Positions 5,791 through 64,000 of a stretch of 64,000 nucleotides of DNA are shown here, in pieces. Below the pieces are notes generated by a model. The model was not told the origin of the DNA. It saw only the letters and a program-made list of their open reading frames with translations, and did no database searches. The DNA is from Takakia lepidozioides (Eukaryota > Plantae > Bryophyta). The stretch spans positions 26,040,001 through 26,104,000 of the forward strand of contig CM060732.1 in NCBI GenBank assembly GCA_030704615.1, read 5' to 3'. Made by a program: the position numbers and the translations under genes. Position 1 is the first letter of the stretch. Every line of letters starts with the position of its first letter.

Positions 5791-5904
5791 TGAGTACATT
5801 CAGCAGGGCTTATACGCATGATAGGGGGATGATATGGTTGCTTGAAAATACCCTTAACAGTTAATTGTCTGCCTGTGTGACTTCGTGAACTTGTGTACAA
5901 TGCA

Positions 5905-9715: not shown

Positions 9716-9788
9716 TTAGAATCTAAACCGTGCACAAAGGTTGAGTATTGGAGGTTGGCAAAGTCTGAGTATAGGTAGGAACAATACT

Positions 9789-10182
9789 GTGGGCTCTGCC
9801 AGTCTTCTCGCACAAGAAAACGTCACCAATTTGATGGTACGTACAGGTTCTACCAGAGTACCAATGATCACCAGCATATAGGTCAGTCATGCTTTGGCTG
9901 CGCCACCATGCTGTCACTTGGTCTACAACCGATGTATCCACCACCACAAGATCATCATGTACCTGAGAACCGAAAAAATCCACAAAACCATCTAGGTCTT
10001 TAGCTCTGTTGACCAACAGAGGCAGCCGAGATCAGAAGCATAAATGCCATGATCACAGCCCTAGACAGCAAAACCAAGGGGACAAAATGCTTTGGAAGGA
10101 AAACTTACAGCCTGCACCAGAGGGCCTCATCAGATGCAATGCTTCGTAGGAACCGGCACACACTTGAACATGTAGAAAGATC
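9789..10182 (-). pseudogene. F-box protein SKIP31-like gene fragment (two exons)
   Basis: Exon 10182-10109 DLSTCSSVCRFLRSIASDEALWCRL|gtaag (F-box end). Exon from 9962 VHDDLVVVDTSVVDQVTAW...SGRTCTYHQIGDVFLCEKTGRAH resembles SKIP31 as I recall it. Confidence 0.7.
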
Positions 10183-32323: not shown

Positions 32324-32569
32324 ATGGACAATGCCCATGGATATAACCAGAGGAGGCGTTATGACTCTTTTAGGGGACACAACTATTCCACCGGTTTACA
32401 TATAAGGGATTCACCTGCGGATGTCTATACCGCCCGGGTGCAACCATATGTTCCGGAACCGGTTGATGATCCACCTCTGGCAGGAATGATATTTGGATGC
32501 ACGACTCAGACTTATCAAGAGTGCATGCGGCTGCAGCTGTTTGGACTGCCAGCCAAGAATAAAAGCCAG
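32324..32569 (+). CDS. First exon of a DCD (development and cell death) domain protein; rest of domain not found
   Basis: LAGMIFGCTTQTYQECMRLQLFGLPAKNKSQ followed by donor CAG|gtaat. Confidence 0.7.
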
Positions 32570-33188
32570 GTAATCATTTCAAGAAGTATTCCATTGTTCA
32601 TCATCCACTCAAGTCTCTTCCACCTCAGCTCTCAAATTTTGCAGTTTGCATGCGACCATCTCCAGGGATTGGAGCTTTCCAAGTTCAACTCTAGTTTTTG
32701 TTTGTAATATGTGTTTGGCCTTGTCAACTGTGCTTTATGCAGAAACAGATGAAAGGGTGCTGGTAGGATTTCATGTGCAATGATTTGAAATATTGCTGAT
32801 TCCAAATTTGCTCCTCCCTGTCGTTCAGACTGTTTTGGAGTTGGATGTGACTGTTTACCTTATATGTGTTGCAGATTCCAGCCAGTTGGTTGAGAGCTTG
32901 AAGCCGCCTCTTCTTTAAATGTACATTGTGTTTTTTCCTCCACTTCTCACACCCATTCTGTGACAGGAAAATGGAAGATGGACCCTAAGACATCAACCAA
33001 GGCACCCAGCTGACGCAAACTTGTTTGAGGTTTGAGACACTCTCCCCTTGTACAGGCCAAATCTGAGCTATTTAATTCTACGGGCTGTAGTATTGGACGG
33101 GATCATGCTGGTGGATGAAGAGAGGAAATTGATGATGTGCCAAATCGATCTGTCATTTGGTGAAAAAAACAGGCTTGCGCTGTGTTGA

Positions 33189-33611
33189 ATGTTCCGAGGA
33201 AGGAGTCTGGGCGGCTGCATTGAGGTCGACAACGAGGTGCATGCATTTGCTGTACAAGACAACTTACATCCACAAATCAAGGAAATCTATGCTGAGATAA
33301 AGAGATTGTCTGGGGAAATGGAGGAGGCGGGGTATGTGCCTGACACATGCTTTGTTTTGCATGATGTGGAGGAGGAGCGAAAGGAGATTTCTCTTGGCCA
33401 CCACAGTGAGAAACTGGCAATTGCATTCGGGCTCATCAGCACACCACCTGGGACACCTATCCGGGTTATCAAGAACCTTAGGGTGTGTGGTGACTGCCAT
33501 ACAGCTGCCAAGTTCATCTCAAAGCTAGTGGGTCGTGTTGTCATTGTACGGGATTCCAACCGCTTTCACCACTTCCAAGATGGTGTTTGTTCGTGTGGGG
33601 ACTATTGGTGA
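33189..33611 (+). CDS. E+/DYW cytidine-deaminase domain of a PPR RNA-editing factor, without an upstream PPR array
   Basis: [57 protein letters not shown]. Confidence 0.92.
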
Positions 33612-37486: not shown

Positions 37487-40400
37487 TTTATTTTATTTTA
37501 TTTTTAATTTAATGAACGGGACATAGGCCCTTTTAGTCAAATTAATCAAAAAAGATGTCACAGCGGTGGAAAAAATAACCACCCAGAAGGCCGTGGAGGC
37601 TTACTAAAGGGTAACATCCCCGTGACCGTAGCGAACATGCTAACAGCAAAAAAAGAGAGAGTGAACAAAGGTAAAGCAGAGGTTGCGAAAGAGAGAACTT
37701 TTCTATTCTAGGGCTGGTAGAAAGAGCAGTAAGAAAGATCTTATACAAGAGAGACTTGTAGGCATTGTTCCGAGAATGGTTTAGATTGGAGAGGTAGCTG
37801 GCTACTTCGTAAGATAAGGGTACAAAAATGATGCGAAAATGAGGTGCTGAGCTGATCCGGAGTTGACGAGATGAGAAGACAAGGAGCTGGAGCAGATCTG
37901 CAGTGGCAATGTGAAGTCCGATTCAGTACTTTAGAACTTGAGCTGAGTTCTAAATTTAGGATCTCGACTTTTCTTATGCCGCCAATTGAAGTCTGCTTCA
38001 TCTCCATCACCAGGGGACTTCCCATTGAGGGGGGATTGATTGATTCCAGGTAAAGCGCATGTTGGGTAGACTGGTGCCGAGCAAGTTGCCTTTGCCCCAG
38101 GAGTCGGCGAAATCCTGAAGCAGCTTCCTCCCTCGTTGCTCCGAAGTTCTGGGAAGAGCTGCACAGACAGTGTCCCACGCTTTTCTCCCCTCAGTTAACA
38201 GATCAAAATAAATGTGAAAGAGGATTGATCTGCCCCAGGGGGCTTTTCCTTCATAAACCCAATTGCATCTGGCTCTCCATAGATTCCACAGGGTGTGGGC
38301 TCTAAGAGTGCTCCATACCGGGCAAACACTCATTGTTAGACCAGTCTGGAAATTTAAAAGCAGTAGAGATGGAGGAGAAGGGGTTGGGAAAGAAGCCCAA
38401 TGAGAGTAGAACGAGAGAACCCGCCTCCATATTCTACTTGCAAGATTGCAGGACAGCAGACAATGTTCTATGGTTTCCACGGGGAATGGCATAGAGTACA
38501 GGTAGGGTTGTCCTCATGCGTTCGCTGCCTGACAGGAATGATTATGTGAACGAGCTTCCATAGAAAGCCTGATATCTTTGCAGGTCTGTGTTTCCTCCAC
38601 ACATCTTTCCAAATCTTGTTCCAGATCCTTTGGGTAAGGCTGTTGCCCCATTTTGCAGACCATTTGCCTCTAAAGGATTGGGGTGGGCAGGCCAGGGAGT
38701 ACCCTTTCTTTACTGTGTATCCAAAGAAAGGGCTTTTCTTTTTGTCCATCCATTTCCACTCCCCTGGGTCAAACTGCAGATCTTCCAAGGGGCACATAAG
38801 AAACCAGGTGAGTGTTTCATGGCGGGCCCATTGAGCCTCCATCCCTTGAGGTGGCAAGGGGTTTGCATTTCCTTTGCCATCAAGCACCCGAATGTGGAGC
38901 AAGTTGGTTTTAGGAACCTCCATCATCCCTGTATAAGAGAGGTCACCCTCACAATTTGTGTGAAACCCCAGTCCAAATGCTATTGGTCCCTGAGTTTCCA
39001 TGACCAAAATGGCTGTCTTTTCATTGTCTCTGTTGCACGCCATCCAAACAGGCGCCATCCAATTCTGGGCTTGTTGCTCCAGCAGAGGGGTCATGTATTG
39101 TGGGATATTGGCCAGGAGAGCGGCCCAGGCCCTGGATCTCCTCCTGCCAAAGCTTGCAGATATGGCTTCTTCTGCAATGAAATTTTCCCCCGAGCGCAAT
39201 GCTGCAATGTGAGTGAAACCCTGCCTCTCCCATAAAGCCCAGCGAGGGGTTTGCGTGAGCAAGACAGTAGAGTCCATGTTGTAGTTTGCGAATAGGGGTT
39301 GCCGAAGACATTCTTGTCGGCTGGCTGGCATCCTTTGGGTAAGGTTACCTCTGATGCTTTGCCAGGCTCTCCAGATAGATTGCCAAGGCCTGGAGCCAAG
39401 AGCCACTGCCGCATTTTTGCCTTGAACAATCCATCTAAGCGATTGAGCCCAAAGTTTGGAAGTTTTTGGCACAGAGCCCATCAAGTAAGGTTGAATGAGC
39501 TTACTCCAAGGAGAGTTTCTATGGGTGATGGCTCTGGGAATCCATTTTGCTAGCAAGGCCCTTATTTGAGCTGAAGGATCGATGATTCCCATACCACCCT
39601 CAGTTTTTTTCTGGCATAGTTATCCCATGAGAGTAGTGCTCGTCTCACTTGTGTGACTTTGGTGGCTCCCCAAATGAAGTTGCGGGTAAGAGCTTTAATC
39701 TCCTTGAGCATCATTGAGTCTGGGTACCATACTGCCGCGAAGAACCACAGTGAAGCCTACAGAATCTGGTTGGCTACAAGGGCTCTCCCCACGACTGAGA
39801 GCATTGCCGAGCACTAGTATGCTAGTTTTTTTTTATACTTTGCCAGCACCTCTTTCATTCTGCTTTGCTGCGTCATATTTAAACCCATCTCATGCCCAAG
39901 CAGAGTGTGCGTTTCTCCCTCTTGCAACCACCTCAGCCCGATGTCGGCTCCCCAAGGTTGACTGTGTGTCACACCTGAGCCGTCTTGCAGCTGGGACAAG
40001 ATCCCTATTGACTTTTTCCAGTTTATCTTCAACCCGGAACCCAGACAAAAGATGCACAAAGTATGAAGAGCTCTATCAATGTTGCTTATGGTGGAATTGT
40101 CAAGCAACAAAATTGTGTCATCTGCGTACATAGATAATTTGAGCATCTCCGGAATGAGTGTTGGCAGGTGTAGCCCAATGATGTAGGAATGATGTCCGCC
40201 GGATGGTCAAGCAAGTGACCCAGGGAGTCTGCAACTATTAAAAATAGAAAAGGGGCCAAGGGGCACCCCTATCTGACCGATCTGGAGATAGGGAAACTCT
40301 TGGAGACCACACCGTTTACCATCACTCTGCTAGAGGGCGAGTGCAGCAAGATCTGAACCCAGGACAGAAAGGGGCCCCCAAGCCCTGTCTTCTCCAAGGC

Positions 40401-42780
40401 TCCTATCAGAAATGTCCAGTCTATGGAGTCGAAAGCCTTTTCAAAATCTAGCATAAGAAATGCCAAAGGTTGATTATTCACCTGAGCTCTGTGCAGGGCC
40501 TCATGTGCCAGAAGGATGTTGTCTAGAATCATGCGATCCTTGAGAAAGCCTGTTTGGTTTTTCCTTATCATTTTTGACAACAGAGGTTGCAGCCTCAATG
40601 CAAGGGCCTTTGCTATAATTTTGTAGGTGGAGTTCAACAAAGTAATAGGGCGGTAGTTGGCCATATCCTCCCTATGTCCCTTCTTGAAAATGAGAGTGAC
40701 AAGTCCTTCAGAAATCTGTGATGGCATAATCTTCTTTTGGAGAATGTCATTGGCCATGAGTAGGTATTCTTCCCCAAGGGTCTGCCACATTGCTTTGAAT
40801 AGCTCTACAGGGAGGCCATCAAGGCCTGGAGATTTCTGGGATGCCATGGATTCCACCGCTTTGCCGAGTTCCTCCATGGAGAATGGTTCAGCCAAAATTG
40901 CTTTGTCCCTTTGCGAGATTGCGTAGGGAATGTGCTGCAGCAGGGTTGTTGTGGCCTGGTCTTTTAGGAGAGATGGATTTTTTTTTTGAAAGAGGTTTTT
41001 GAAGTAACCAGCGGCCACAGAAGCCATTGTCCTGGGGTTGTCCACCAGCAGACCTGTGGCTGAATCCCGCAGGGCCGGAACAAGAGTTGTAGTTCGCCTT
41101 TGAGCTGTTTTGATGAAGAAGTATTTATTCATCTTTTCGCCTTTGAGTGACCAGTTGACTCATGCCTTGATCCTCATGAACTCTTCTTTGGCATGTAACA
41201 GTAGGGACAAATTTTGTTTGGCAGTTTTGTATGAAAACAATGTGTAGGGGCTCTCATGTCCAGTCTGCAATTGATACTGGCAAACCTCCAGGCACTTCGT
41301 AAGGGCTTTCTGCCTCCTGATGGTAGCCTCTGCTTTTTCCCTTGAGATTGCCTGGCATTTGTTCCTGAGGATTTGGAGCTTTGCCAGGGAGCGCACTGTT
41401 GGCGAGGTGAAAGGTGCTTCCGCAGTCGCCCATGTCTGTTGCAGAGTTTGAATGACGTCCCGGTCTTTGAGGAATGTGGGGTTGAGTTTGAAGAAGCCCC
41501 GACCCTTCACTCTGGAGCCGGGGGTGCTTAGCATCATGTGGACGGAGGCGTGATCAAAACCTGGCTGTATGGGCTGGAGTGGCACTTGCTTAGACCAAGA
41601 CACCAGAGTTGTTGTGTAGTAAAATCTGTCCAGACGTGCTTGGCAGAGGTTTGGCGGATCCCTGTTGTTTGTCCAAGTGAATTTGAGCTCTCTTTGTTTT
41701 GGCGTTGTGACATCCAATAGGCCCACAGTCATGCAAAGTGAGTCCCATGAGTTCATTTCTGCTGTCATTTCTGCTGTCAATATGCCATGTGCAGCTTGTC
41801 CCAGCCTGTCTGTATCCTCCTCCACCATGTTGAAATCTCCCCCCTGCTATCCAGTGTTGGATGTTAGTGTGCTGCAGCATCTTGTCCCTGATGTGATCCC
41901 ACACAGCCACCCTTTCTTCTTCCCCATTTGGTACATAGATGTTAATGACACCCACCAACCAGCATTTGTTGTAGAGAAGGGGAGAGCAAAATAGCAATGC
42001 CTCCTCTCGAGTCTATTATTGTAGGGTTCCAAAAAGCAATGGCAGAGGATTGTTAGCATGATCTGATGGCCATAGAGGATTGAAGAGAAATTTTGTGCGT
42101 CTATCTGTTGAAGGTAAAGCTGAGACCCATTTGAATCCTTTTGGGAGGGGAAGCAAGTGCGGAAGTTTCCAGGTGTACACTGTTCTAGACCTCTTCCTTT
42201 TGCTATTGTAGTTGATGGGGAGATATTGGTTTGCATTGTCCTTGTGGATGGAGAGGTTTGGGATTTTTAGACTAAGTATTTTTTTTGGCCTTAAAAGAGG
42301 ATTGATGGTGTAAAGGTAAAGGCATCAGTGGCTGTTAGGCTCTAAGGATGAGGAGGTCTGGTTTTTTGTAAAAGAAGACAGCCTGGTCCTAAGAAAGAAT
42401 CTGAGAAAAAAAAAAAAGTGCCGACGAGGATGATGGGAAAGGCTGTGGAGTCCCACCAGCCTGGCAGGAGTTTTTGGTGAGTTGGATGACTGTCCAGCAT
42501 GAGGGTCCAAACCCTTTTGTTGTCAGTAGCATGAGGGACACAGAAACAGAGAGGGGAGCAAGCATGGGAGGACATGCTTACCATTGGAGGCGATTCGATG
42601 GTCTCCTCTGGGGGGGATGCTAGAGTGTGAGCCCAGGAGCCTGGCGTGAGCCCAGGACATGTGGCATGATTTTGGGAAAGATGCGGCGTCTATTTCCGTG
42701 GAAGAGGACCCATTACCGCAGAAACACATCTTCATCCATATTTACCCTGCAACCCCAAACAGAAACCCCAACCCTTGTCA
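37487..42780 (-). mobile_element. L1-clade LINE: ORF2 (APE endonuclease, RT, zf-RVT), frameshifted, with 3' UTR and (AAAAT)n tail
   Basis: EN: INIYVPN, GG/DFN, FTW, ARLDRFY, FDH. RT: KSPGLDG, NYRPITLLN, LDFEKAFD, YADD. zf-RVT: PAKISGFLW..CTLC..ETIEHCLLSC. Tail at 37487-37506. Confidence 0.93.
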
Positions 42781-46018: not shown

Positions 46019-47074
46019 CTGCGCAAGAACAGTTCTACAATTCAGAGAAAAGATGTTGAAGAAGAGTAAGTGACTTTTCCCGGTGCAATGCAGATTTGCA
46101 GTGGAAATGGAAAGGGGAGAGGAAAAAACCTGTGCCCAGTAATTGAATTGTAGGAGTAGTCTAGTGGTAAGGACGTAGAATGTGTCGTGATGCACCGCGG
46201 GATCAAATCGCGATGCACTGTTGTTTTGCTTTTCTTTTTTTTCTTTTCTCCCTGCGATCTGTCTCCCGTGGGCTCTCTTTTCCCTCCTCCCGCGCCCTTC
46301 CGTGTCAGCTAGGTCTTAGCAGGCCATGTTTCAATCTCTGCTTTTTGGTGGGAAGCAGATGGTATTCAGAGAAATTTGTGAAGGGGCAATGGGAGAAGGA
46401 GGAATGCATGGTGGAATGGGAAGCATATTATGCCTGTGTCTCAGTACTCTCCCTCTCTAGTTCTCAAAGTTTTCATCTCTTGGTACCTTTATCACAATTT
46501 CTAGTGGTTTTTATGTACACTTTGTTGGTTTATTGCACTATGAAATGTAGGGGTTTCATGTAGTTAATGGTTCCAGTAGTTGTGCTTGTGGTTTCACATG
46601 GGTGCCTGACATGCGCAGACCGTCACCTCACCAGCAGATGTCCATGTGTGCTTGGTTGAGGTGAATGGTGACGATGGCATCAGTGGTGGCGGGGATGCGA
46701 TGGAGCGACAGTGAAGGTGTGGGGAGGCATAGGCAGCTTACTCCTTTTGTTGTTCTTTGGACCTACTTTAGCAGGCTTCAGATTTTGGTGATGTATTTGT
46801 CTGCATGAACTACACATCTCCTGATTGTGTGTGCAATCTTCAGGTGGGCGCCATACTTGCTCTTTGAGCAAGGATTGTAGTCAACGAAATTACTTTCAAA
46901 GTACAAGTCCTGCAAGCCTCAAGACACCATTTTATCTCTCTGTCTCAAGTGTCTCCTCTCCTGGATTCGAATATTCAATGAGAGATAATCTTAGAGCTAG
47001 TAGATAGATCAAGGTTGCTGTTTGTGGAAGCTTGAGGCCCCACCCCATAGCTGTGGCACACAAATGAGGAGGTA

Positions 47075-48300
47075 TTTCACATGGTCCTTCCAAGTTATGC
47101 TATCCCGACCCTCCAAGACCAAGACGCCTGAGGGCAAGACCTCTCGAACCCTCAAAAGAACACGTCCTGCAGTCACATCCAAGGTCGTAGGAGCAATCTG
47201 CTGCAGATAGACGTAGTCATTAGGGTTGAATCTCCGAACCCCAGGACAATAGCCCCCACCACGTATGGTAGCATACCTCAACGTATCACGGTGTTGTGCA
47301 ATGGCAAGGTTCTCAAAAGCCATTGGCATGACTTTCTTGAACAACTCTGCACGCTGCTCACATGCAATGCCCACACATCCGGATCGTCAAGGTTAAGAAG
47401 TGTAGCAGCTTCTCTGCGAATGGATGTAGGAAAATCCGGCTCTTGGCCAAAGAGAATAAAGTATGGTGAGAAGGAGGCAAGTGATGCTTGCTTGCTGAAC
47501 CTGTAGCCCATGGCTAACCAGGGTAACTGAAGGTCCCAATCTCCTAGGTGTCCCTTCTGCAAGCCATACTTGCGCAAACCCCTCTTTATTGTCTGAACAA
47601 CTCTCTCTCTGCCAAGCCATCGGCCTTAGGATGATCCCGAGAAGTGGTGCGGTGGTCTATCAAGGCCTTGTCACACAAAGCCTGAAACTCCCCCAAGAAC
47701 TCTCTCCCTTGGTCCGTGAGTACCTCAGCTGGAGCACCGAATCGGCTAAGCACACAATCCAAGAATGCATACGCAGCTCCCTCACTAGCCTTATCAGGCA
47801 ATGGAACCAATTCAATCCACTTAGAGAAGTGCTCCACCATCACCAACACGTACTTGTTGTGGCGCATGGTCAGTGGCAACGGCCCTGCGAAGTCAAGACT
47901 CCACCTGTAGCCCAATCCCATGATCGGAAGAGGGTGCAATTGTGGAGTAGGGACGTTGAATGAAGCACGCACCCTGTCACACACCATGTACCTAGCCACA
48001 AATTGTTGCACCTCTGTGTGCATACCATGCCACCAATATTGCCCCTGCAGTAGACTATGAGTGCGTCGCACCCCAAAATGCCCCAACTCCTCATGGGCAT
48101 GCCGCACTAACCGTGCCCGCTGTGTTGGGTGAGGCACAATCCTCACTCGACCATCCTCCCACACTCGGAGCAGGTGTGTCCCCTCCCACTTGAACCTCTT
48201 GGCTCGTTGTAGGATCCGATCCCTGTCCTTGGCAGTCACAGTGGCTGCAGTGTCTCCAGTGCGGAGGTAGTCCAACACAACTGAATCCTCATGTATATCT
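47075..48300 (-). pseudogene. Integrase (zinc-binding and DDE core), frameshifted and 3'-truncated
   Basis: ORFs 48416-47586, 47577-47278, 47374-47009: HEELGHFG, WSLDFAGP, VLTDQGREF, DGLAER, DWDLQLPW. Confidence 0.92.
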
Positions 48301-48379
48301 TTGGCGCCACCTTGCTCATTGCTGGCCTCAGGGTCCTCAGACACTTGATCATCTTTGTTGCAGGTCCAACCTGACCTTC

Positions 48380-49867
48380 CGCTGCCAAGATACACAGAAA
48401 TGCAGATGCATGCCATCCGGGCACCATCTCCTCGTCCGTCTCACCATGCCACCGAGCTCCAGTGTCATCCTGCTGGCTCGTGCATGGATTGCGACTCAAC
48501 CCATCTGCATTGCGATTGACCAAACCCGGTCGATGCACCACCTGAAAGTCATACTCTTGAAGGATGAGTGCCCACCGTGCAAGCTTCCCCGTAAGCTTGT
48601 CTGACTCCATCAACCACTTGAGTGGTTGGTGATCCGTGACAAGGGTGAAGAGATTGTCGTATAGATAGCACCTGAAGTGTGCCACGGCCCACACTGCAGC
48701 TAAGCATTCTCCCTCATATGAGCTATACTTAGACTCAGCAGCATTGTTCGAGCGGCTAGCGTAAGCCACTACGAACTCTCTTCCCTCATCATCCACCTGT
48801 GTGAGCACCGCTCCAAGCCCCAATATGCTCCAATCTGTATGCAGCTGAAAAGGACGCCCCCTAATAGGTCGTCTCAAGATGGGCGCCGAGGTCAACCTCG
48901 CCTTGAGCTCTTGAAAAGCTTGTTCTTGCTCATCTTCCCACTGCCACTCGTGGTCCACCTTGGTCAGCTTGGTTAGAGCCTTTGCAATGGCACTAAATCC
49001 CTTAACAAACCGTCTGTAATAGTTTGCTAACCCCATGAAAGCTCGAACTCGGCTCACCTCCGTGGGGCGTGGAACCTGTGCAATGGACTCTACCTTAGTC
49101 TGTTGTACCCCCAATCCTCCAGGATATATCATGTGACCCAGATACTCAATCTGGTTGTGGAAAAACTTGCACTTTCCCGGATGTAACTTCAATCCGTGCG
49201 TCCTCAAGCGCTCAAATACCCCCTGAAGGTGTCTCTCATGCTCCTCCACCGTAGCACTAAAGATGATGATGTCATCTATGTAGCACCGAGCAAACTCCAC
49301 CCCTCCTAGAATCCTGTCCATGACCCTTTGAAACTCAGCAGGAGCGTTTTTAAGCCCAAATGGTAAGAACTGCCACTGGTATAGGCAATCCTTCCCGTGC
49401 TCATTGATCCCCCAGAATGCCGTCTTTTGCTTATCCGCCTCCTTGATCGGCAACTGGTGATATCCGGATCGTAAATCCAACGTGCTAAAGACCTTAGAAT
49501 GCCCAATGGCATCAAAGATCTCCTCTGGTGTCGGCATGGCATACCTATCGGACTTGGTCTGACGATTTACAGGCCGGTAATCACCGCACATACGTCTCTC
49601 CGTCCAATTGCCATAGACATCCTTCTTGGCTGGCATCACTGTGGCTGAAGCATACTCTCCACCAAAGAGCTCCACCAAACCTGCCTCCCAAAGATCATGA
49701 GTTCTCATCTGAATCAAGGACCTCTCCATGTCACTGTATCTATAGGGTCTCCGAAAGATTGGCGTGTCAATGGCCAATTCAATGCGAATCTCTTGACCCT
49801 TCAGTGCTCCCAAGTCCTTCAAACTGAAGGCAAAGCAATTCCTATAAGCCCTCAGGAACCGCCGCAT
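48380..49867 (-). CDS. Reverse transcriptase and RNase H of the Ty3/gypsy element
   Basis: RMCGDYRPVN, FSTLDLRSGYHQ, PFGLKNAPAEFQR, CYIDDII, FMGLANYYRRF, LHTDWS, WALILQEYDF. Confidence 0.97.
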
Positions 49868-50279
49868 ACGTTGTCTCTCTCCTCCGGTGACAATGGGTCC
49901 AATGTCAGGCTCCCAATTGTCCTCCGTAACTGCAACCTTAAGTCCAGTGGGCTTAGAGGTAGAGGACGCGTCCCGTGGTTGCTATGCTGCAACCTCTTGA
50001 GCAGTACTCCCTTCCTGCTCAGTCAATGACAAGGCCTCATCCTACCCCATCATCTCATCATTGAGAACCTCCTCAACCCGAGAAGAATCCCCAACCTCAT
50101 CCATCACAGCTGCCTTGGCTGCCAACTCCCTCTGGACCTCGAGCACCTCCCACGTGTGCCATGGATGTCTACACCCCGTGGTCCTCACCGGCTCGCCCCC
50201 ACTCGCTGCCTGTACCGTCTCAGTAGGCAGAGAGACCGTCAAGGGAAGTGCACTCCGCACTCTACGTTGCTCAGCCATA

Positions 50280-51240
50280 GCCAAGCTGATAATCCAGGTC
50301 AAGCAATTGAGATCCATTGCTTGCCCTAACACCTGACGACGTAATGCCTCAGAAAGAGAAGGCACCGCCGTGGTCCCAGTGGAAAACCCCATAGCCCGCT
50401 CTCGCTCGTCGGCATTAGGCTCCACTAACTGTTGCAACTGAGCATCCCATAGGAGGCCAGGTCCACCATCCCGAAAAGCATGGGATCCTGGGAAGCTGAG
50501 CAGTGTAGGTAATGCTGCTTGTGGTTGACCCACCCTGTTGACCACTGCCAAAGGCGAACGGTCATCGTGTCTCACACGTTGAGACTGCCTCCCTGTGTCC
50601 AAAATACTGTCCACTATGAGGTGTGTTGGCTGCTGCACCCCATCAAATGCACGCTTGAGCAGTGCGGGTGGCATCAAGTTAGTCCACCATAGCCGTGGAC
50701 GATGAGCCCGTGATCCCACTGCAGCTCCATCCAGCAGCACTGCTGACCCAAGCCACGACCGGACTTGATGCACACTGGCCATCACCCTGGCCCGAGAATC
50801 GCCCATCAGTGGCACATTCTCCAAGATGTATGCTGGCGATACAACTTGATGAAGCTGCAAGTGGCGCAAAATCCGTACCATCTCCCAAAACAGACCCATC
50901 CTTGAGTCTCGCAATCCATTGCCATGCCCGGCTGATGAATGCCCTTGGCAGGGCCAACCTGCCACTACCAGATCAATGGAGCCAACCTGCTCCAAATCCG
51001 GCGCCCCCAGCAACGAAATGTCTGCTGGCAAGGCTTGTTGGTATCCACGAACTGCAGACACTGGCAACAAAGTAGGGTACTGCTGTACCAACTGAGCAAC
51101 ATGGCGCAGTGAGACGCGTCGTGCAGTCTCATCCCTCTCCACATACAGGTAACGCCTTACCCGCACACCTGCATGTAGCATAGCAGCCAATCCGGTGCTG
51201 ATCCCGCCAAACAAGTCCACAAGGCAAATGCCTTCATCCG
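50280..51240 (-). CDS. DNMT3-like C5-cytosine DNA methyltransferase domain within retrotransposon pol
   Basis: Motif I VDLFGGISTG, II YVERD, IV VAGWPCQG, VI ILENV, VIII AHRPRLWWTN, IX ERERAMGF, X RRQVLGQAM; no stops in the domain. Confidence 0.93.
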
Positions 51241-51579
51241 GATACTGCCACACAATAGGTGTGGTATCCAATGGTGACAACTGAGGTGGTCCTGGTGCAA
51301 TACCCGCACTCTCCTCCTCTCCTGATGGTACAAAAGCCTCTACCCAGGCTTGTTGCACCCATCGATCAGCAACCTGCTGCAAATCCTTGCTCGTACCCCA
51401 CAATGGAGTGTGAGCAACCATGGCAGACAACTCCGCCAAACCATGCATGTCATCCTGCTCTGCTAGAGGTGGCACATCCTCTGCATGGGCATTGCCTTCC
51501 AGCAACTCTCCAGGCCAACTAACTGCAGCTGTAAAGGTGGCTAGTGTTGGCATCTTGCCCCGTTGGGCAGCCGTAATAC

Positions 51580-51960
51580 CCCCAATGAATGTCACAGGGA
51601 GCTGTGCACGACGACCATCCCCTGACTGCCATCCGGGCCTGTAGAATGCTGACTCCTCCCAAAAGTCCAAGGTGAAGCCCATGGGGTATAACACTGCCCC
51701 ACCAACGAGGACATCGTAAGAGACCACGTCTGTCATAATGGCCTTGGCTCGCATTACTGAGCCATCGATAGGATGATCCGGCTGCAGTCTAATGGCCAAC
51801 TGATGCCGTGTCATGCCCCGAGCCTGCTCTGATCCTCCCAGAGATGTCTGTATCTGGAAAGGACAAGGCTCCATATCCGCCTCCATGATGCCCAAACCTG
51901 CAATAGCAGCTCTGCCCAACATCAGTGGCTAAGCTCCCGAGTCCAACAAGACCCGCAGTG
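51580..51960 (-). pseudogene. Retrotransposon aspartic protease
   Basis: LRVLLDSGA*PLMLG (Asp at 51943-51941, TAG at 51931-51929)...YDVLVGGAVL. Confidence 0.85.
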
Positions 51961-52139
51961 GCCGGTACTTCTTGCCTACCGGTCCACTCAAAGAGAAAAT
52001 GCCATCCTGGTTGTCTAACAAGACAACTCCAGGTGTCACCATGGCGCGCTCAAAGGCTGGCCCAGCTGGCAGCTCCGTCAACCTGGCAGCTGCAGCTTGC
52101 CATGGCGCAGCCGTCCCTCTGCCACTACACCTTCCAGTA

Positions 52140-54130
52140 ACTCCGCAGAAGATGAAGTGACCTCCCCACTCTCACAGAGTGTTGCTGCTAGTCTGAACAC
52201 TGCAACTGGTCTTATCCCTGGTGTCGCAATCATGGTTGCCGAGAACAGTGGGGCTTGACACACAGAGGTGGCTGCCCCCAACAACACACCGGCTGCACTA
52301 GCCTTGTCAGCAGGTGTCAGTGCTGCACGTGTAGCTCTCCCCAATGGCATAGAAACCTCCGCCTCGGTAACAGTCGGGCGAGAACTAGGTGCCATGGATG
52401 GCGTTGACACTGTCTCCGCCAAGGTGAATGACTGAGGCAGCCTCGCCTGACGGCTTGCCTCCCCACGTTGTGGATCCAACTCCACCTCTGCACCTCGTGG
52501 CTCAGGAACTCGTGCTGCTCCTCGAGTCACGGCTGCAGCAGACTCCAACTGCTCTAGTGGTAGTGCTGCTCTGCACATGAATCCCATGCCTCCCATATCT
52601 CCTCCCTCAGGAACAGGAGGTGGACCATCTCGCCTGGGAGCCGGTACCGCCTGAGCTGTAGCCATGGCAGCGAGCCTCTGCTCTAGCTGCTGAAGCCAGT
52701 TGGCCATGCCTTGGTCAACACCCTGACCTCCGCGTCCTTGGCCATGTTGAGCTTGCCCTTGGCCTGCACCTCGTGCCCGACCACCTCGTCCTCTCTGGGT
52801 TGGTCCACCTCACCCCCGGCCACCATTGTTCCCTTGGAACTGACCTGGGCGCAACTCAGGATGCAAGTCATAACACTGGGCATCTCCATGCCCATACTTG
52901 CCACAATGCCCACACTGCAACTGTGCAGGCTGTGTTTGTGCCGGCCTTTTGCCACTCTCTGGGCAATCTCTCTTGACATGGGGTCCTCCACATGTCCAAC
53001 ATATCACCCCTGGTTGCTGTTGGTCTGCAAAAGATGCCACGGGCCACTGCACCTGAGGTCCCCTGTAAGCTCCATAGAACTTGGGTTGGGAAACCTTGCC
53101 CCCCTGACCACGCTGTTGGGCAATCCCTTGTGCCTGTGGGCTGGCAGTTGCGCCTCGTGCAGGCATGTCCTTGCCAAACCCAATGGTAACAACTCAGTCC
53201 TCCACCATGTTGAGCTCAATCCGCTCAGCCAGCAGAAACACATCTGCTAATGTGGGTTGGGCTGCTTGTAACAGGGTTGCATCTCGCACCCTTCTCCTGA
53301 GCTCCTTGTCCAAAATTCCATACCAGAACTAGATTGCCAGAGCTTCAGTAACCCCTTGGGTCACACTTATCAAGCGCCTCATACGAGTGTAGGCCTCTCG
53401 CAAGCTCTCACTGGGTTTGCACTGTAAGTCTTGCAAACTTCCCAGCTTCTTTGTCCGTACACCTTGGTATTTCCTCCGCAACTCCTGGAAGAACTCCACC
53501 ACCGGGTTGAATCTAGGCACATGTGTTGTAGTCGTGGCAGGAGGAGTAGTAGCACCTTTTGAACTGGTACCACCTGCAGAAGTACCGGCACTACTTGTTC
53601 CACTACTAGTGCTGGCAGTGGGAGATATTGGTACTGATGCAGCTACTGGTCGCGTCGTGCCTCGAGTAATGGAGACGTAGTCAGGTGACCAATACATCCT
53701 CTACTCCTCAATCTCTGCTTCATGTCCTTGCCTGAACTCGTGGTAATCGTCCATAGGCGGGCCTTCCAAATGCTGGAACAGTCCCTTCCACGCCATGAAT
53801 GGTGTGAATAGCTGTGGATTGTGCATCTGCTGCAAATCACACCAGTTGTCGAACTCCTGGATAAAGTCATCCAACTCGATTGTGCCCACAGCTCCAGAGT
53901 ACCTACGAGGCCCCTTGATAGCTCCATACATCTCCTCCATGTCGTCCCACAACAATGGCGAATGAAACTGCACACCTGTTGATTAAGCCTCCGAGTCTGT
54001 GTCTGACTCTGCACTAGTTGAGGGTGGAGGTGAAGGTGGTCTGAAACAAACACCTCGTCTGGTGAACCCACTCTCACTACTACTGCCTGTAGCCGTACTC
54101 CCCTCAGAACCCCTGGATAACTCCGTGGTG
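52140..54130 (-). pseudogene. Gag-like protein with two CCHC-type knuckles and an RG/Q-rich region
   Basis: One reading frame from 53973 to about 52140 with four stops; CWTCGGPHVKRDC and CGHCGKYGHGDAQC; PSESLREAYTRMRRL. Confidence 0.85.
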
Positions 54131-54892
54131 ACACTCACAATGTGCACCTCCCCCACGTGACACTATAAGGCTCTATTACTAATTCTAATAGTGACACGGG
54201 TAGGCACCTGTTGCAGTTTAAGGGTCATATCCCAGTGGCTCAGGGCACCTGCACCTGCATCCACCGCAAGAACTCCTATGGTTGGCTGGTCATCAACCCA
54301 GTCTCACCATAGAAGAAACACTGGTGGTCTTGCTGGTCATCACTCCAGCCTCACCACCGACAACATACTCTAGGATTGACCGGTGATCAAATCCGGCCTA
54401 ATCCCTATGAAAGCAAGCGCCCACACAAAACCAACATGGCGCACAGTCAAGCATGTAGGTGTTGGGGGGGATCCAAACACAAGAAATCAAAACATCAACA
54501 CCCCCACACCAAAATCCAGCTGCAATGCTGATCCTGCAGAATAGCCCAGCCCAAAACCCCGGACTGACTGGCCTCCACCAAGAGAGGCTTTGGCAACTAC
54601 GAGTACAAGGTAATGAAAATAGTACAGAGATGGAGGGGAAGAATAGAAGCCCGCCCAAGCAAGATCTAATCCTGATCTATGCTATCAACTGCCAGACTTC
54701 TCTCAAAGTGCCTCGCTCTGCATGATGGTAAGGTGTAGGAGGTATATCTATGTCCAGAAACCTGCCACTAACCTTGTCCCAAGCTACAGTAGCTCGCTCT
54801 AACCAACCCTCCTCCTCTTTCTGCCAGGTAGAGACAAAGCAATACTCCCCTATCTCCCGCTCACTGAACACTAAAGAAAACAAAGGTAGGGT

Positions 54893-55426
54893 CTAATAGT
54901 CTCTCAACTCGAAAGCTTTGAGACGGTTGCGGGTGTCCTCATTGCGAATGACTGCATCTCCTTCAAGCAAAACAAACTTATCATTGCTAATGAACCCCCG
55001 CTCGTGGTTGCCTTGTGCAGAGCGTATCCGGCTGCAACCAAGTCTGATTGCACAAACTTGTGCAGCTCCTGCTCCTCTGCTCCAGTACACCACGGCCTTG
55101 TGGCTGAACACCTTGGTCCCTGGGGCTGTCTTTGGTTGTGTTCCAAGCCTAGCTTTCACCCACTTTGGTATTTCACCTACAGCTGCAGAACTGCTGGCTC
55201 CAACAGAGTTCTGACTATCCAAAGCAACATTGAGGCCCTCAACGCCAACTACAGCAGTTTGTTGTCTACTGCTAATGCCTGGCTCCCAGTATGCAATCAA
55301 CTCATCCAACTGTTCTCCACTCAAATCAGTCTGAGTTCCTTGGGAAACATAAATCATGTCCCCTTGTGTGCACAGGCTAAGAGACGAGACCTGCCCTTCA
55401 ATTACCTCCTCATTTCCCCCAGCCAT
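54893..55426 (-). CDS. Unknown 177-aa ORF upstream of gag, same orientation
   Basis: Intact ATG-to-stop ORF about 0.9 kb 5' of gag; no recognised domain. Confidence 0.45.
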   Translation of the reverse strand: MAGGNEEVIEGQVSSLSLCTQGDMIYVSQGTQTDLSGEQLDELIAYWEPGISSRQQTAVVGVEGLNVALDSQNSVGASSSAAVGEIPKWVKARLGTQPKTAPGTKVFSHKAVVYWSRGAGAAQVCAIRLGCSRIRSAQGNHERGFISNDKFVLLEGDAVIRNEDTRNRLKAFELRDY

Positions 55427-55519
55427 ACAAGGAGAACATCCACAAATTTGTCTCTCATATAGACCAGAACAGGTTCTAGAAACAGAATTGTGGATCTTTC
55501 ATGGCACACTCACACTCTA

Positions 55520-55790
55520 AAAATTCCATATATTTTTAGCAGAGTCCCAAAAACAAAAACCAGGTCTAGATAGGTAGATATCCCCTTTGTGCAGCTATCC
55601 CCTCAAGAACTGAGTCAAACGGAGCTCATTTGACAAAGATATGACCAACCAAGCTCTTTAAACATAACACATTTTATTATTATTATTATTTTTATTTTTA
55701 TATAAGACAAAACAAATACAAGGAAAACTCTATTTTCAATACTTGTCTTGGTTCCCTGTTCCCTGGTTTCTTGTTCCCTGGTTCCCAGTG
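55520..55790 (-). repeat. Dispersed repeat, inverted copy of 676-885; candidate 5' leader or LTR piece of the Ty3 element
   Basis: Reverse-complement match with an AT-rich indel. Confidence 0.85.
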
Positions 55791-59355: not shown

Positions 59356-59599
59356 GACAATCCGGTGGCTCCATTGTCACTCCTGGGACAGCTGCCTCTG
59401 TCGTTCAAGGAAAGCGGAATGTGACTGTGAAGCAGGAGGACACCACTTCAACAACTTTTGTGACACTGTCGGATTCCTCGGATGATGAATTGGCAGAAAT
59501 ACTGGCTCCCATGAACAGTCTTCCTGAAGGGGACGTCGATGTTCAAGAAATCGTTAGCGTCATCCCACATCTGAAAGCATTGTCAGGAAAACCATGATC

Positions 59600-62270
59600 C
59601 AAAAACGAGATCGCAGGGATACTGTGGGATTCATTCACAACAAAAAGGGTTCCTTTCCTTCCACCTTCCTTCGACAGTGACATCCTCTTTGATCTGAATC
59701 CAACAACTTGTGTTGGGGGCCTCTCAGGTCTCTTGCAAGGAATGGATAAAAAGCATGATGGACATCCATGGTGCAGAACCAAAACGTCCAATATCCACAA
59801 CGATGTAAACTTGACATTCAGAAGGAGCGTTTGTGTGGGGCATCTGAGATGTGTGAATGCAAGTTGTCAGCGTTTCATGAAGAGCGGTGCTAAAAATGAG
59901 AGTGAGTGGGAAGGACTCTCCGACAATCCTTTTATCCCAGGTTGTGCCCCACCGTCTGCCAGTACATTTGTTTGTAAGTTCTGCAAGGTGGCCCCCTCCT
60001 GCATTGCACATTGTCCTGCTCGCATGTACTACGTTACTCACCGTTGCAAAACCATGACTCGAGCCTACATTCAATTTGGGACTCACGACCATCCTGTGTC
60101 TCACGGCGATTGCAGAGATAGTGTGGAGTTGGCGCGTGGGCTTGTCGTGGAGGAGTTTGCAAAGTCCCCTTCAGCCAAACCATCTGCCATAGCGCTGGCT
60201 GCCAGCAAAAATTTCCTAGAGAGGCACATTCTTGGGCAGGGAAGCGAATGCAGCTCAAGACTTGAGGGGGCTTCTTTGGATGCAGTGATGGATCACTTCT
60301 CCGTGTTGAGCTCCCCCAATATTAGGAATCAGGTGAATGCATTGAGAGTGCGCGGTGGAAACACAGGGTCCATCAACAGCATTATGGAGCTCAAGCGCAT
60401 AAGTCAATATGACTTTATCCAATCTAGCATCTTCCCGGGTCAGGGGTCTTCAAAGGTTTACTTGTTCAAGATGTCTACGGTGGGCGAGGCCAGACGTATG
60501 CAACAAGGGGTGGATTTGGAGAAAGCCTGGATGATGTTCGATCATTGCAAACGAGTGAAGGGCTGGACAACCATGTCTTGCCATGTTTACGACCCAAACT
60601 ACCAAAGAATAATGACAATTGCCATCTGTGACATGCAGTTTGAAGATACAGAGTCCCAGATGATAATGTGGAATTGTTTGCTTTCAGTCATGGAGTCCAA
60701 TGGACATACAAGCATAAATTTCAACGGGTTTATGGCGGATAGTGCACAGGCTAACTTCAACGCTGTGCGCCGAGTTTTTGGATCTGGTGATCCAAAGGTA
60801 CCCATGCCTAATAGGGAACGCACATGTCTATTCCACTGGACTCAGTCCCTGCAGAAACATACGAAGAGGTGCATCAGAAGAGATCTGCAGGCGGAGCATA
60901 TAAGGCTCTGCTTCATGTACAAGAATGCGACTACAATGGAAGAGGCTGAGACCATGTACCAGACAGTGAGAGCATGGTGGTTCTCGTCAGGGGCTACTGA
61001 TCAGGACGGTGTCAAAGAATTGGAAGACTGGTTGGTCTTTTCGCACTTCAGATACATACAATGGGGGCTTTCATGACTACTGTAAGCTGTCTTTCACCTC
61101 TGCAATCCCTTGTATGTGCCCAATTTCTTTCCTTGTTCCCAGAACAGTCCGCGCTTGCATGAATGACGCTCTTTCATTTTCCTTTCACAGGACATGTCCC
61201 TTGAAACATTGCGGACATGCCGTCCTGCAATCTGGCAGAAAGCGTTCTCGCCGCCTGGAAGCAGCAATCTGGCAAAGCAGGAAGAGATCTGTAAATTGCT
61301 ACAACAGATGATCTGGTACGAGCTCTAACCCAGCAAACAAGATATCGTGACTTCCTCAGGGGGCGATGTGGGGGCAAGGGACCAAATACAGCAGAGTTGA
61401 TGCTGAGGGCTGCAAGAAGGTCCGGGGATCCAACGAAGATGGCAAAGGCAGTGAACAAGTGCACAATGGGCTCGCCTCTCCAATCAAGGGAGCCCCATCA
61501 AGAAGGAGAGGAAAGGTTCGGGACTTGCAAACGCAAGCTAAATACACCTCCAGGATCAGATGGGGATTCACATCGCCATGACAGAGACAACTTCTCTGTA
61601 CCCAAGATTTTTCCACTACAAAGCATGGCGTCTAGTAGGAAAGAGGCTGCTGGTGGCTTCCTCTTCCACAGTGCAACCCCTGTAATTGCGGGTTTCTAGC
61701 AGGACCACAGGGGGGCAGTGCAGGAGTCACCTTGTGCTGACTCCGAATGGCACATCGAGCGAACTACTCCAGGGTCTAGAGTTGGCTGCACTGCAGTGAG
61801 GGCCATTAGTTATGAAAAGTGTAAGTCCAAGATAGCCAAAGGCTTGGCGGGTACTCCAGCTCCGACGTTCATAGGTTTGATTCGGCCATATATGTCAAAG
61901 GAGTCGAAGATGCACAAATTCTGGTTCTGCCCGGACGATATGGCTCGCTGTGTGAATGGTACCGTCCGCGACTCCTGCATTGCTAAGCCTCCCCCACCAA
62001 CCATTTGGCTAGTGCGAGTGGGAACCTCCCTAACAGCACTGGAGTTTGGCAAGTTGGAGGACGCTGGCTTTCGTCTGCACCGATTTGTGGCGTCGACTCT
62101 TGGTGGCCTTGCTGCTATGGTGCCTCCTCTAGACGATACTTCGCATCCCACGAGAAGGAATGGCAAAACAGTGCATTGGGTGGCTTTGGGGCCTGATCAC
62201 GATGCGAAGGTGGAATCGGCCAGACTACTTCAGGCTCGGGTAACAGGAACTATGGAAGTACCTTCATCAT
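59600..62270 (+). mobile_element. Mutator-superfamily transposase with GCM/WRKY-like zinc DNA-binding domain, disrupted and 3'-truncated
   Basis: DGHPW..CVGHLRCVNASC..CKFC..CPAR..GTHDHP; catalytic region MFDHCKR, FMADSAQAN, CLFHW and, after an intron at about 61082-61189, PSCNLAES. Confidence 0.85.
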
Positions 62271-62274
62271 CTGG

Positions 62275-62720
62275 TTTTTTTTTCACCTCTTCTTCTATAA
62301 CAGAAACCTGAAGAAGTTTGACAATGATAGAGCTCAACTTTTTTTTCACCTCTTCTTCACAAACAAAGCCTAAATAAGCTTGAAGATGGTCATCTGTCAA
62401 ATTTTCACCTCATCTACATTAATAAAAACCATTGCCTGTTTCACAATGAATGGTCATATTTTGGGGCCTGTTCTTGCCCATCCTCATTATTTTAATCCTC
62501 TCCTTCAATATTTCATCCATCCATCATTCATCCAGCATGGATGAAATACTGGAAACGTCAGATAGCTTGACAATGAGCATCCAAACTTTTCTTGCCTCTT
62601 GTTCATGCAAGAATCCCTAAGTAAGATTCATGATGACTCACCCAACCTTTTATTTCACCTCTTCTTCAATAAGAAAACCTTAGTAACTTTCACAATGACC
62701 ATTCCATGTTTTCTATACCT
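62275..62720. repeat. Degenerate ~60-bp tandem repeat (TTTCACCTCTTCTTC core)
   Basis: Cores at about 62281, 62344, 62403 and 62653, variant near 62590. Confidence 0.7.
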
Positions 62721-62729
62721 CTTTTTTTA

Positions 62730-64000
62730 AGCGCTATAACTGCTTCCACGACAATAGGACCCTCTCTAAACAGAGGACTCGGATATGGGGCTTGCTTCTT
62801 CCTCCACTAAACCCCTGGGCTCACGCTTAGAGGGCAAAGCGTGAGCCGAGCTCCTGGGCTCACGCGGCTAGGCTCACACCGTAGCTGCGCTCGTCCTCTG
62901 GTAGCAGGAAAGTGATGGAGGTGTTAGCCACCGCATTGGAGGAGATGTTAAACTGATTTTCCCCCGCCAGTACTATCTCCCTGTTCGTGTTTGGCTGCAA
63001 CAGGGGCTGTTTTCCTTTCTCCTTCAGCATTTCGTAATGTTCGTCCACCCATTTAAGACCTTGCTCGAAGATCTGCTTGGTGCGAGCCTATTCATTTGGA
63101 TCCTTGACCCTGCAGGAGAGAAAGTACTTGTACACCCAAATCCACGAGTTATGGGCACCCGTGGTATCCAGACCTCTACTGTATATCACTGGCATGACAT
63201 GGACAATCGCTAAATCAGGATGAGAGTCATTGTTAACTACCATGATGCCAATGTGTTGAATGTGATTTAAAGTGAGGTTCAAATTAGGGAAGAACTCCTG
63301 GAGCACCTCTAAGGTGAGTGCGAGCATGATATCTCTTTCCTTTCCTACTCCAAATTGAAGGGCAATGGCCTCTGTAACCCATGCTGTCTGAAACCCTTCC
63401 TTGATATTTGAGAGGAAAAATTTGGTGTAGTCATCAATGAAGTTGTACAGAAGTGGGGTGACACAGATTGCCGCCTTCTCCCTTGCGTAGTTTGAACCCG
63501 GTGCCCATCCAAGTAGGGGCTTTCATTTGAAGGAGTGAAGTTCCAGGAAAGAGATTGCCAGGCTGCCACTGTCTAGTTGTTGGAGGTCGGATTCTGTGAA
63601 GGGAAAGGAGGCCCAAGCCTCCATGATTCTTACAGGGAAGAAGCCAGAGCTAGAGGGTCTTTTGGGCGAGGTGGGGGCCGACAATTCTACACTTCTTCTC
63701 CTTTTTTTGAGGTGTGCAGCTTGTCATTGACTGTGATGTATTCGTTGGTGTCCATTGCCATAGCCTCCGGCACTTGTAGATTTTGACATTGATTTGAGAT
63801 GCTTTGCAGAGGCTGCGAAGAGCCTTCATCTTTCCTTGTGAATTTTGCGCCTGGGCAGTCTGCCTTGACATGTCCTTCAGCATTGCACCGAAAGTAGATA
63901 ACAGCAAGTACCTCCTCCTTTATGGCCACTACTATGAACGAGTCATCCAGAGTTGGTAACTTGATGGAGCTGCCGATTTTGGCATTATCTGGCATGAGGA
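62730..64000 (-). mobile_element. L1-type ORF1 remnant (CCHC knuckle), running off the window
   Basis: IKLPTLDDSFIV..VI(Y)FRCNAEGHVKADC followed by a low-complexity basic tail. Confidence 0.6.

Follow-up and report, generated by a model that had tools for sequence, protein, structure and literature searches.

A DNMT3-like methyltransferase encoded upstream of a conserved, probably leaky stop codon in a Ty3/Gypsy retrotransposon family of land plants

Why a transposon should carry an enzyme of the class that silences it has been a puzzle since 2018, and the sole Gypsy enzyme assayed was inactive in yeast. The question is raised again by an element on the minus strand of the window, which is the whole 64,000-nucleotide stretch of Takakia lepidozioides DNA analysed here. 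The kind of element is already known from Klebsormidium (PMC5890265). The Klebsormidium nitens element KnitGypsy-Dnmt3 (de Mendoza et al., 2018; PMC5890265) shares with the family of the window element a Ty3/Gypsy domain set, DIRS-like split repeats, and a Dnmt3-like domain that is intronless, unpermuted, and subject to purifying selection. The window element differs in its land-plant host, in its far larger family, and in where its DNMT stands: the Klebsormidium domain lies in the Pol ORF (PMC5890265), whereas that of the land-plant element ends ORF1 before a conserved stop in a readthrough-type context.

Table 1. Features of the element, listed from its 5' side, in window coordinates
Feature	Position	Strand	Remarks
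5' non-coding region	53941..55506	-	candidate 5' terminus 55506; putative boundary
201-codon open frame	54896..55498	-	inside high-copy 5' region
Gag, decayed	52810..53940	-	four in-frame stops; two zinc knuckles; weak PF03732 match (E 0.049)
Gag zinc knuckles	53001-52963 and 52914-52873	-	
Aspartic protease (PR)	51620..52051	-	DSG at 51943; single stop at 51931
DNMT3-like C5 cytosine methyltransferase, open	50225..51259	-	motifs I-X in unpermuted order; FGGIS 51211, PCQ (Cys codon 50950-50948), ENV 50821, AHRPRLWWTN 50707, ERERAMGF 50407, RQVLGQ 50338
TAG in DNMT-RT linker	50042..50044	-	copy-specific, decay; other copies differ
TAG + CAR-YYA hexamer	49976..49984	-	conserved; end of ORF1 (Gag-PR-DNMT); likely readthrough site
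Reverse transcriptase (RT), open	49115..49861	-	YIDD at 49282; RVT_1 E 2.8e-32
RNase H (RH), open	48488..48946	-	RT_RNaseH PF17917 E 3e-35
Integrase (INT), zinc-binding domain and core	47078..48290	-	rve E 2e-14; core 47900-47601

Reading frames and Pfam matches confirmed the minus-strand order Gag (two CCHC knuckles)-PR (DSG)-DNMT-RT-RNase H-integrase given by a sequence-only reading of this DNA. The order Gag-PR-RT-RNase H-integrase (DDE) is that of Ty3/Gypsy elements, and the intronless, unpermuted Dnmt3-like domain is located between PR and RT, as in KnitGypsy-Dnmt3. PR, DNMT and RT share one frame, as that reading had stated, and RNase H also lies in it; the frame is interrupted by three TAG codons, at 51931, 50044 and 49984. 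Gag is in a different frame from PR in the window copy. Extra sequence at 52114 is present in other copies, as represented by read contigs, and the Gag/PR frame change near 52114 is specific to the window copy; in this comparison of the window with read contigs, 40 of about 990 differences were listed. The integrase contains three frameshifts (one in the interval 48290-48488, one close to 47601, and one close to 47366), and the copy is cut on its 3' side at 47078, with loss of the 3' repeats and of the integrase C-terminus, which ends in a PHD finger in relatives. In the protease, PF13650 was found in the intact relatives L045 and L081. The window copy is a decayed, 3'-truncated relative of KnitGypsy-Dnmt3 that belongs to a Ty3/Gypsy family of high copy number, and it cannot move autonomously.

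The putative 5' boundary (Table 1) is similar to the TG start of the A repeat of relatives, its distance to gag is 1545 nt compared to about 1610 nt in relatives, and high family cover extends to about 55400-55700. The Gag ATG at 53940 coincides with the start in Marchantia gene models. The open frame within the 5' region has no Pfam match at E ≤ 1 and no counterpart in related loci or fetched proteins, and may have arisen by chance. Split direct repeats of the form A1-internal-B1-A2-B2, a DIRS-like arrangement found in relatives only, are present in 4 of 10 long loci, and no further complete case was found in a set of 17 loci. Four relatives show the TG...CA ends and target duplication (4-5 bp) of Ty3/Gypsy elements; the duplication is 4 bp, exact in three relatives and with one mismatch in the fourth. 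An ordinary two-LTR structure with a tRNA primer site was not found: no terminal repeat pair of at least 40 nt surrounds the truncated element in the window, and no TGG primer-site start was seen by eye after A1 in relatives. A CACGACA-like motif near 46190 was rejected as the 3' end, as it has no family cover and its flanks show no target duplication.

Elsewhere in the window, a DYW domain with an E+ motif is encoded at 33189-33608, separate from the element. Its best single-domain matches (about 66-78% identity) are PPR-DYW proteins, including proteins of Sphagnum, Calypogeia, gymnosperms, and a lycophyte; the domain and these matches identify the host as a land plant. The element (0.48) and the window (0.51) are equally depleted in CG, which indicates no special methylation footprint.

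All six DNMT motifs that the sequence-only reading had called intact were located (Table 1), and PF00145, which it had named for this ORF, matched with E 3.6e-12 and 46.8 bits (Pfam cut-off 22). In a profile search of the PDB, DNMT3A ranked first (E 5.6e-21), followed by DRM (3e-10), and by DNMT2 and M.HhaI (about 1e-5). DNMT3A was likewise the best Foldseek match (E 4e-19) of a structure model with a pLDDT of 88.5, in agreement with the earlier description of a DNMT3-like, unpermuted enzyme. Motifs I, IV, VI, VIII, and X and the fold are those of the DNMT3 clade, and among 222 sequences the catalytic Cys is conserved in 216, the ENV Glu in 221, and both motif VIII Arg residues in 216. We conclude from the model and the motifs that the element enzyme is of DNMT3 fold and has all catalytic motifs. 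Host DNMT3 enzymes (animal DNMT3A/B; plant DNMT3, PMC6453930) have this fold and these motifs in common with it, and DNMT3A is the best solved match in both sequence and structure; by contrast, identity is only about 20%, and the element DNMT has neither PWWP nor ADD. It also differs from DRM in being unpermuted. Phage C5 methylases follow closely on a common profile (67 compared to 78 bits), so scores do not fix the donor of the DNMT.

In 14 comparisons of the window DNMT with relatives, dN/dS was 0.07-0.11 in nine, 0.25 in one, and saturated in four; values between intact relatives were 0.147 (an unsaturated pair) and 0.083, and those of decayed copies inside one family were 0.49-0.83. As judged from these codon comparisons, the DNMT is under purifying selection with dN/dS of about 0.1. 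This value bears out the earlier expectation of dN/dS below 1 and lies below the Ka/Ks of 0.2 that marks the KnitGypsy-Dnmt3 type.

The TAG codons of the window copy had all been attributed to decay. This attribution holds for 50044, where the letter differs from the window in 98% of the summed contig depth of run X1 and in all of that of runs X5 and X7 (summed depth is not copy number, and X7, which may be DNA, was unused as expression evidence). It fails for 49984, where a stop occupies the corresponding position in 56 of 56 located junctions of related loci (39 TAG, 17 TAA), which comprise many near-copies and about five independent lineages. Of 81 loci, 70 extend to the DNMT end; the junction could not be located in 14 of these, four of which stop within 60 nt of the DNMT. 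The highest stop frequency elsewhere at homologous codons is 17/51. Two related loci, L045 and L081, are open throughout except for the conserved stop, which interrupts both. Moreover, 22 of 68 long homologues, five of them from Marchantia, are Gag-PR-DNMT proteins that terminate shortly past the DNMT, and the C-termini of proteins from Marchantia and Calypogeia lie 92-94 residues past motif X, at the same place as judged by protein ends alone. The stop at every located junction, in a readthrough-type context, implies that the DNMT closes ORF1 (Gag-PR-DNMT) outside Pol. This arrangement contradicts the earlier placement of the DNMT inside a Pol polyprotein, and sets the element apart from KnitGypsy-Dnmt3, where DNMT and RT share a single uninterrupted Pol ORF.

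The type I leaky stop motif is UAG-CAR-YYA (PMC2754532). CAR-YY follows the stop in 54 of the 56 loci, and the window and 7 of the 56 have the full type I arrangement, with UAG, CAR-YYA, and an in-frame downstream ORF. In the dominant family, which supplies 49 of the 56 loci, the last letter of the hexamer is C instead of A and 17 rows have TAA, so that readthrough may be weaker. Representatives of the five lineages agree at only 9 of 96 flanking positions, and RT is in frame with the stop in all five at a spacing of 35-42 codons. Synonymous sites are near saturation (pS about 0.65-0.75). The first in-frame Met after the stop occurs at codons 39, 48, 3, 117, and 117, and this variation implies that reinitiation is not conserved. 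Variation in the 40 codons 3' of the stop falls chiefly at third positions (6/8/14 and 1/0/5); the upstream 40-codon comparison was confounded by indels and was unused. No consistent RNA structure was found 3' of the stop (z -0.4 to -3.4). The conserved stop and its hexamer suggest that the site is likely leaky and that RT-RH-INT-PHD is probably made by readthrough. The stop of TMV likewise places UAG-CAR-YYA between an abundant N-terminal product and a rarer polymerase-bearing extension; the present, putative case differs in its retrotransposon setting, in the position of the stop after protease and DNMT, and in the final C of the dominant hexamer. Readthrough into env of SIRE1 uses a CAR-YYA-type motif, and readthrough also takes place at gag-pol of MLV.

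We favor, as the probable course of events, a Gag-PR-DNMT3-like ORF1 whose conserved UAG likely permits a low level of readthrough, leaving DNMT in excess, likely packaged, and likely methylating new cDNA. A near-cognate tRNA would read the UAG, as in TMV. In plant reporters, the TMV context gives readthrough of about 6-32% (PMC2754532), which would correspond to roughly 3 to 15 DNMT per RT/integrase. With RT-RH-INT made by readthrough, DNMT would be produced at the level of capsid protein and be in excess in particles, where it would co-assemble with Gag and then be released by the protease of the element. It would place de novo 5mC on cDNA before or at integration, and this mark could shield the cDNA or determine which chromatin state the new copy adopts.

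The same two-ORF readthrough layout could serve a DNMT that acts outside the particle, on integrated copies, host chromatin, or RNA, or that is a SAM- and DNA-binding scaffold. The Klebsormidium domain produced no methylation in yeast, which its authors graded as inconclusive, and RNA methylation and host benefit are options in their discussion (PMC5890265); a Gag-level dose would also exceed the need of one cDNA. We nevertheless regard action outside the particle as rather unlikely, because fusion to Gag and protease would link the DNMT to particle assembly, the DNMT adjoins integrase in one clade of relatives, and the catalytic residues are conserved.

Bypass of a real stop by splicing, or expression of RT-RH-INT from its own transcript or start, is more doubtful still. 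In the plant Ty3 elements called Ogre the ORF break also comes after protease and before RT, and an intron separates GAG-PROT from RT-RH-INT (PMC6317226). Marchantia and Sphagnum gene models P0123, P0125, P0127, and P0151 span the site with a shortened linker, and in the dominant family the third codon past the stop is an ATG. However, Ogre, which has no DNMT, splices out a spacer of about 274 bp, compared to one in-frame stop here; frame is maintained despite varying linker length, as is the hexamer, and the downstream codons are under coding-like constraint. Furthermore, the early ATG is absent in the remaining four lineages, and the bridging gene models are predictions.

A single Gag-Pol or Pol polyprotein that encloses the DNMT, with every TAG due to decay, agrees with the decayed stop at 50044 and holds in deeper relatives, since DNMT continues into RT with no intervening stop in 14 of 68 long homologues, among them proteins of Klebsormidium and Closterium. 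For the present clade it is very improbable, given the stop at all 56 located junctions and in two otherwise intact elements. That the DNMT is a passenger (a piece of host gene, a nested insertion, a chimera, or a contaminant) can be practically dismissed, for although none of the contigs listed bridges the 3' junction at 47077/47078, the Gag-PR-DNMT-RT order is repeated in dozens of loci from many hosts, the intronless DNMT is under purifying selection, family cover is very high in runs of one organism (from four studies), and searches found one match among 185,579 prokaryote genomes (GTDB, 1 of 5 candidates) and no relative in IMG/VR (0/39 candidate stretches); the DNMT is integral to the family, as the sequence-only reading had supposed.

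Related elements occur in Marchantia, Calypogeia, Riccia, and Sphagnum, and homologues form 531 clusters (50% identity, E ≤ 1e-30), for part of which an element-borne nature is established. The K. nitens protein KFL_009030040 (P0176), which we take to be a KnitGypsy-Dnmt3 family member, has the order PR-DNMT-RT-RH-INT and a DNMT 45% identical to that of the window; K. nitens copies fall in a divergent Dnmt3 clade (PMC5890265). In a chlorophyte-associated clade the DNMT is placed between RNase H and integrase, which suggests that the capture goes back further, and is more widespread, than the single published charophyte case implies. An IQ-TREE analysis with phage enzymes as outgroup kept 52 of 74 element rows (the 22 removed were 20 near-copies, P0148, and P0170) and joined the stop-bearing elements in one group with support of 88/90. 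The base of the family was not resolved in this tree, which fits one capture followed by a move, or two captures. FastTree trees were weakly supported at depth, and the IQ-TREE result alone was used.

Retrotransposon-borne C5 methyltransferases are also carried by SymbioDIRS-Dnmt3 (PMC5890265) and EpiLTRs (bioRxiv 10.64898/2026.05.21.726589), which are different element classes. The SymbioDIRS-Dnmt3 enzyme performs de novo CG methylation in yeast (PMC5890265). EpiLTR DNMTs are DNMT4-like, stand at the pol 3' end, and are accompanied by DAM and a chromodomain (bioRxiv 10.64898/2026.05.21.726589).

The conserved stop predicts that the DNMT is dosed as Gag is, and not as RT. Many family copies are annotated as 'DNA methyltransferase' genes in bryophyte gene sets, where they can distort any tally of host DNMT3. 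As the family is present in Marchantia polymorpha, a genetic model, the question can be tested in a plant. A broader proposal, which we offer tentatively, is that a green-plant retrotransposon lineage of chlorophytes, charophytes, and bryophytes may have kept a single DNMT3-like enzyme from close to the green-plant root onward and moved it between two slots. The land-plant clade would then have gained a leaky stop, and with it capsid-level amounts of the enzyme, so that every particle would be loaded and its cDNA pre-methylated, and the family would be, where abundant, an unrecognised source of 5mC beside host DNMT3.

The element reads Gag (two zinc knuckles), protease (PR), C5 methyltransferase (DNMT), reverse transcriptase (RT), RNase H (RH), and integrase (INT), the order proposed by the sequence-only reading, and its DNMT (PF00145), RT, RNase H, and integrase all exceed curated Pfam cut-offs. 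A single frame spans PR to RNase H, with TAG interruptions; that reading had claimed one shared frame for PR, DNMT, and RT. This copy is dead, because Gag contains four stops, the frame changes, the integrase region carries three frameshifts, and the copy is cut off at a point beyond which other copies extend; it retains just a candidate 5' end. The family is highly repeated: 81,566 contig pieces of sequencing run X1, which may come from the source sample itself, were placed on the window, with a summed depth (a figure not equal to copy number) of ~6e5-1.2e6 over the coding part versus 5e2-4e4 in the flanks. By its sequence, the host is a land plant, because the DYW domain with E+ motif in the window matches moss, liverwort, gymnosperm, and lycophyte PPR-DYW proteins.

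Features of the window (S, strand; run X7 is another sequencing run)
Feature	Position	S	Remark
~200-nt repeat	678-861; 55561-55768		two inverted copies, 79% alike; one adjoins candidate 5' end of element
Ulp1 (Peptidase_C48) domain	5889-6884	+	typical of Mutator/CACTA-type transposons
37-nt tandem array	7100-7290
~100-nt repeat	8800-11120		three to four copies
Imperfect tandem repeats	18300-19900		GC-rich, ~70% GC
DCD/DYW region	32261-33611		DCD exon ~600 nt ahead of E+/DYW domain, which lacks upstream PPR repeats in its own frame; possibly DCD-DYW gene fusion or PPR-DYW fragment
DYW domain, E+ motif	33189-33608
Decayed LINE	38010-42266	-	pieces of endonuclease, RT, zf-RVT; flanks match 20646-20870 inverted
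Higher cover	46234-46600
Turn-back of X7 contig	46358-46733		376 nt, tandem or circular unit; just outside 3' cut
Element, Gag to integrase	47078-53940	-	cut off at 47078
TAG codons	49984; 50044; 51931	-
Frame change	near 52114	-
Candidate 5' end	55506	-
Long open frames	59598-62308; 63091-63522	+; -	492, 134, 203, 144 codons; no Pfam match at cut-off; possibly transposon proteins

The TAG codons had been read as decay, which stands for 50044, specific to this copy, but fails for 49984, between DNMT and RT. Among 81 related loci examined, 70 extend to the DNMT end; of these, 56 yielded a locatable junction and 14 did not. At the junction codon, every one of the 56 has a stop (39 TAG, 17 TAA); other homologous codons are stops in at most 17 of 51. 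The junction anchor contains the stop letters and allows up to seven mismatches, so that a sense codon would have been detected. These 56 rows are mostly near-copies; the independent evidence comes from about five lineages, with synonymous sites near saturation and flanks agreeing at 9 of 96 positions. Loci L045 and L081, outside the window, each consist of ORF1 (Gag-PR-DNMT), a single TAG, and a 1047-codon ORF2 (RT-RH-INT-PHD) with no further break, ORF1 of L081 starting at the contig edge. Thus, the layout around the stop comprises two ORFs.

The stop is followed by CAR-YY-N in 54 of 56 loci. The full CAR-YYA, which after UAG forms the TMV readthrough signal (plant reporters showed 6-10% readthrough when stable and 32% when transient, according to the text available of PMC2754532), occurs in seven of the 56 and in the window; the dominant family (49 rows) has CAACCC in 45 and CAACTC in two. 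The first Met past the stop lies at codon 39, 48, 3, 117, and 117 in the five lineages, and proteins in Marchantia and Calypogeia end at the matching place. Readthrough of the conserved stop is very probable: most ribosomes would terminate after DNMT and some would read through, giving abundant Gag-PR-DNMT and scarce RT-RH-INT.

DNMT3A leads the solved matches of the DNMT profile (E 5.6e-21), followed by DNMT3C/B, DRM (3e-10), and DNMT2 and M.HhaI (about 1e-5). It is also the first structural match of the predicted model (pLDDT 88.5; E 4e-19, TM 0.82 by target, ~20% identity), so the label DNMT3-like, given in the sequence-only reading, holds by profile and prediction. Because five phage methylases score nearly as high on this profile (at most 67 bits, versus 78 for DNMT3A), the donor may have been a host gene or a phage-like relative. 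The catalytic Cys is retained by 216 of 222 homologous domains, as is each Arg of motif VIII, and the ENV Glu by 221; in 85 of the domains, Glu replaces the Pro before the Cys. Between the window and 14 loci, DNMT dN/dS was 0.07-0.11 in nine and 0.25 in one, four being saturated without a value; it was 0.147 in an unsaturated pair of relatives and 0.49-0.83 among decayed copies of one family.

Given readthrough, we consider it reasonably likely that the element's protease would free the DNMT within the particle, where it would methylate cDNA. Against this mechanism stand the dominant family's imperfect hexamer, CG depletion equal in element (0.48) and window (0.51), and the inactivity in yeast of the Klebsormidium domain, a result its authors call inconclusive (available text of PMC5890265). 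That the DNMT instead works outside the particle, or non-catalytically, is unlikely, though the likeliest rival. Ogre-like splicing around the stop (PMC6317226, text available) is rather improbable. A single polyprotein holding the DNMT, claimed earlier, is very improbable given the stop at every located junction and the otherwise unbroken L045 and L081; 14 of 68 long homologues do run from DNMT to RT without a stop. A passenger or artefact is less credible still.

Of the other long homologues, 22 are Gag-PR-DNMT and end soon past DNMT, 26 (proteins P0152, P0156-P0187) carry DNMT between RNase H and integrase, five, all gene models, have a shortened bridge, and one is of uncertain layout. The RH-DNMT-INT order also appears in most long matches of the DNMT profile search (531 clusters at E<=1e-30). 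In a DNMT tree of 52 of 74 element rows, with basal branching not settled, a single branch (96/97) separates RH-DNMT-INT proteins, including the chlorophytes Hariotina and Cymbomonas, from the rest; stop-bearing elements group together (88/90), one Marchantia gene model falling among them; and the window DNMT joins Marchantia and Sphagnum elements (99/89). Among the matches listed (120 + 68), named land-plant sources are Marchantia polymorpha, M. paleacea, Riccia, Calypogeia, and three Sphagnum species, named algae are Closterium, Klebsormidium, and Cymbomonas, with Hariotina in addition, and no vascular plant is named. The L081 contig (1-9285), whose ends overlap by 127 nt, is taken up entirely by one element that is undamaged but for the conserved stop; the contig sits in a genome bin labelled cyanobacterium and is most likely mis-binned green-plant DNA. 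Protein P0024, labelled Obscuribacterales, ends as ORF1 of locus L046 does and appears likewise mis-binned; one MAG-labelled homologue record is probably mis-binned.

Four relatives (9.1-11.0 kb) are arranged A1-internal-polypurine tract-B1-(2 nt)-A2-B2. Each begins with TG, ends with CA, and is flanked by a 4-bp target duplication, which is exact in three and carries a mismatch in the fourth. Their split repeats agree with the DIRS-like repeats of KnitGypsy-Dnmt3, the Klebsormidium nitens element (PMC5890265, Fig. 4 legend). In the available main text and three word-searched supplement files of PMC5890265, this kind is described for K. nitens alone; the available text of PMC12344493 (one supplement file word-searched, no match) and bioRxiv 10.64898/2026.05.21.726589 mentions it just as a streptophyte element, and that of PMC6317226, PMC9940879, PMC11982613, and PMC6453930 contains nothing on it. 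In literature searches of open-access text, nothing was found on land-plant copies, the readthrough site, or the RH-DNMT-INT clade. We conclude that the feature is genuine and extends the range of a known element kind into land plants, and that the conserved, probable recoding site would alter the expected dose of its methyltransferase.
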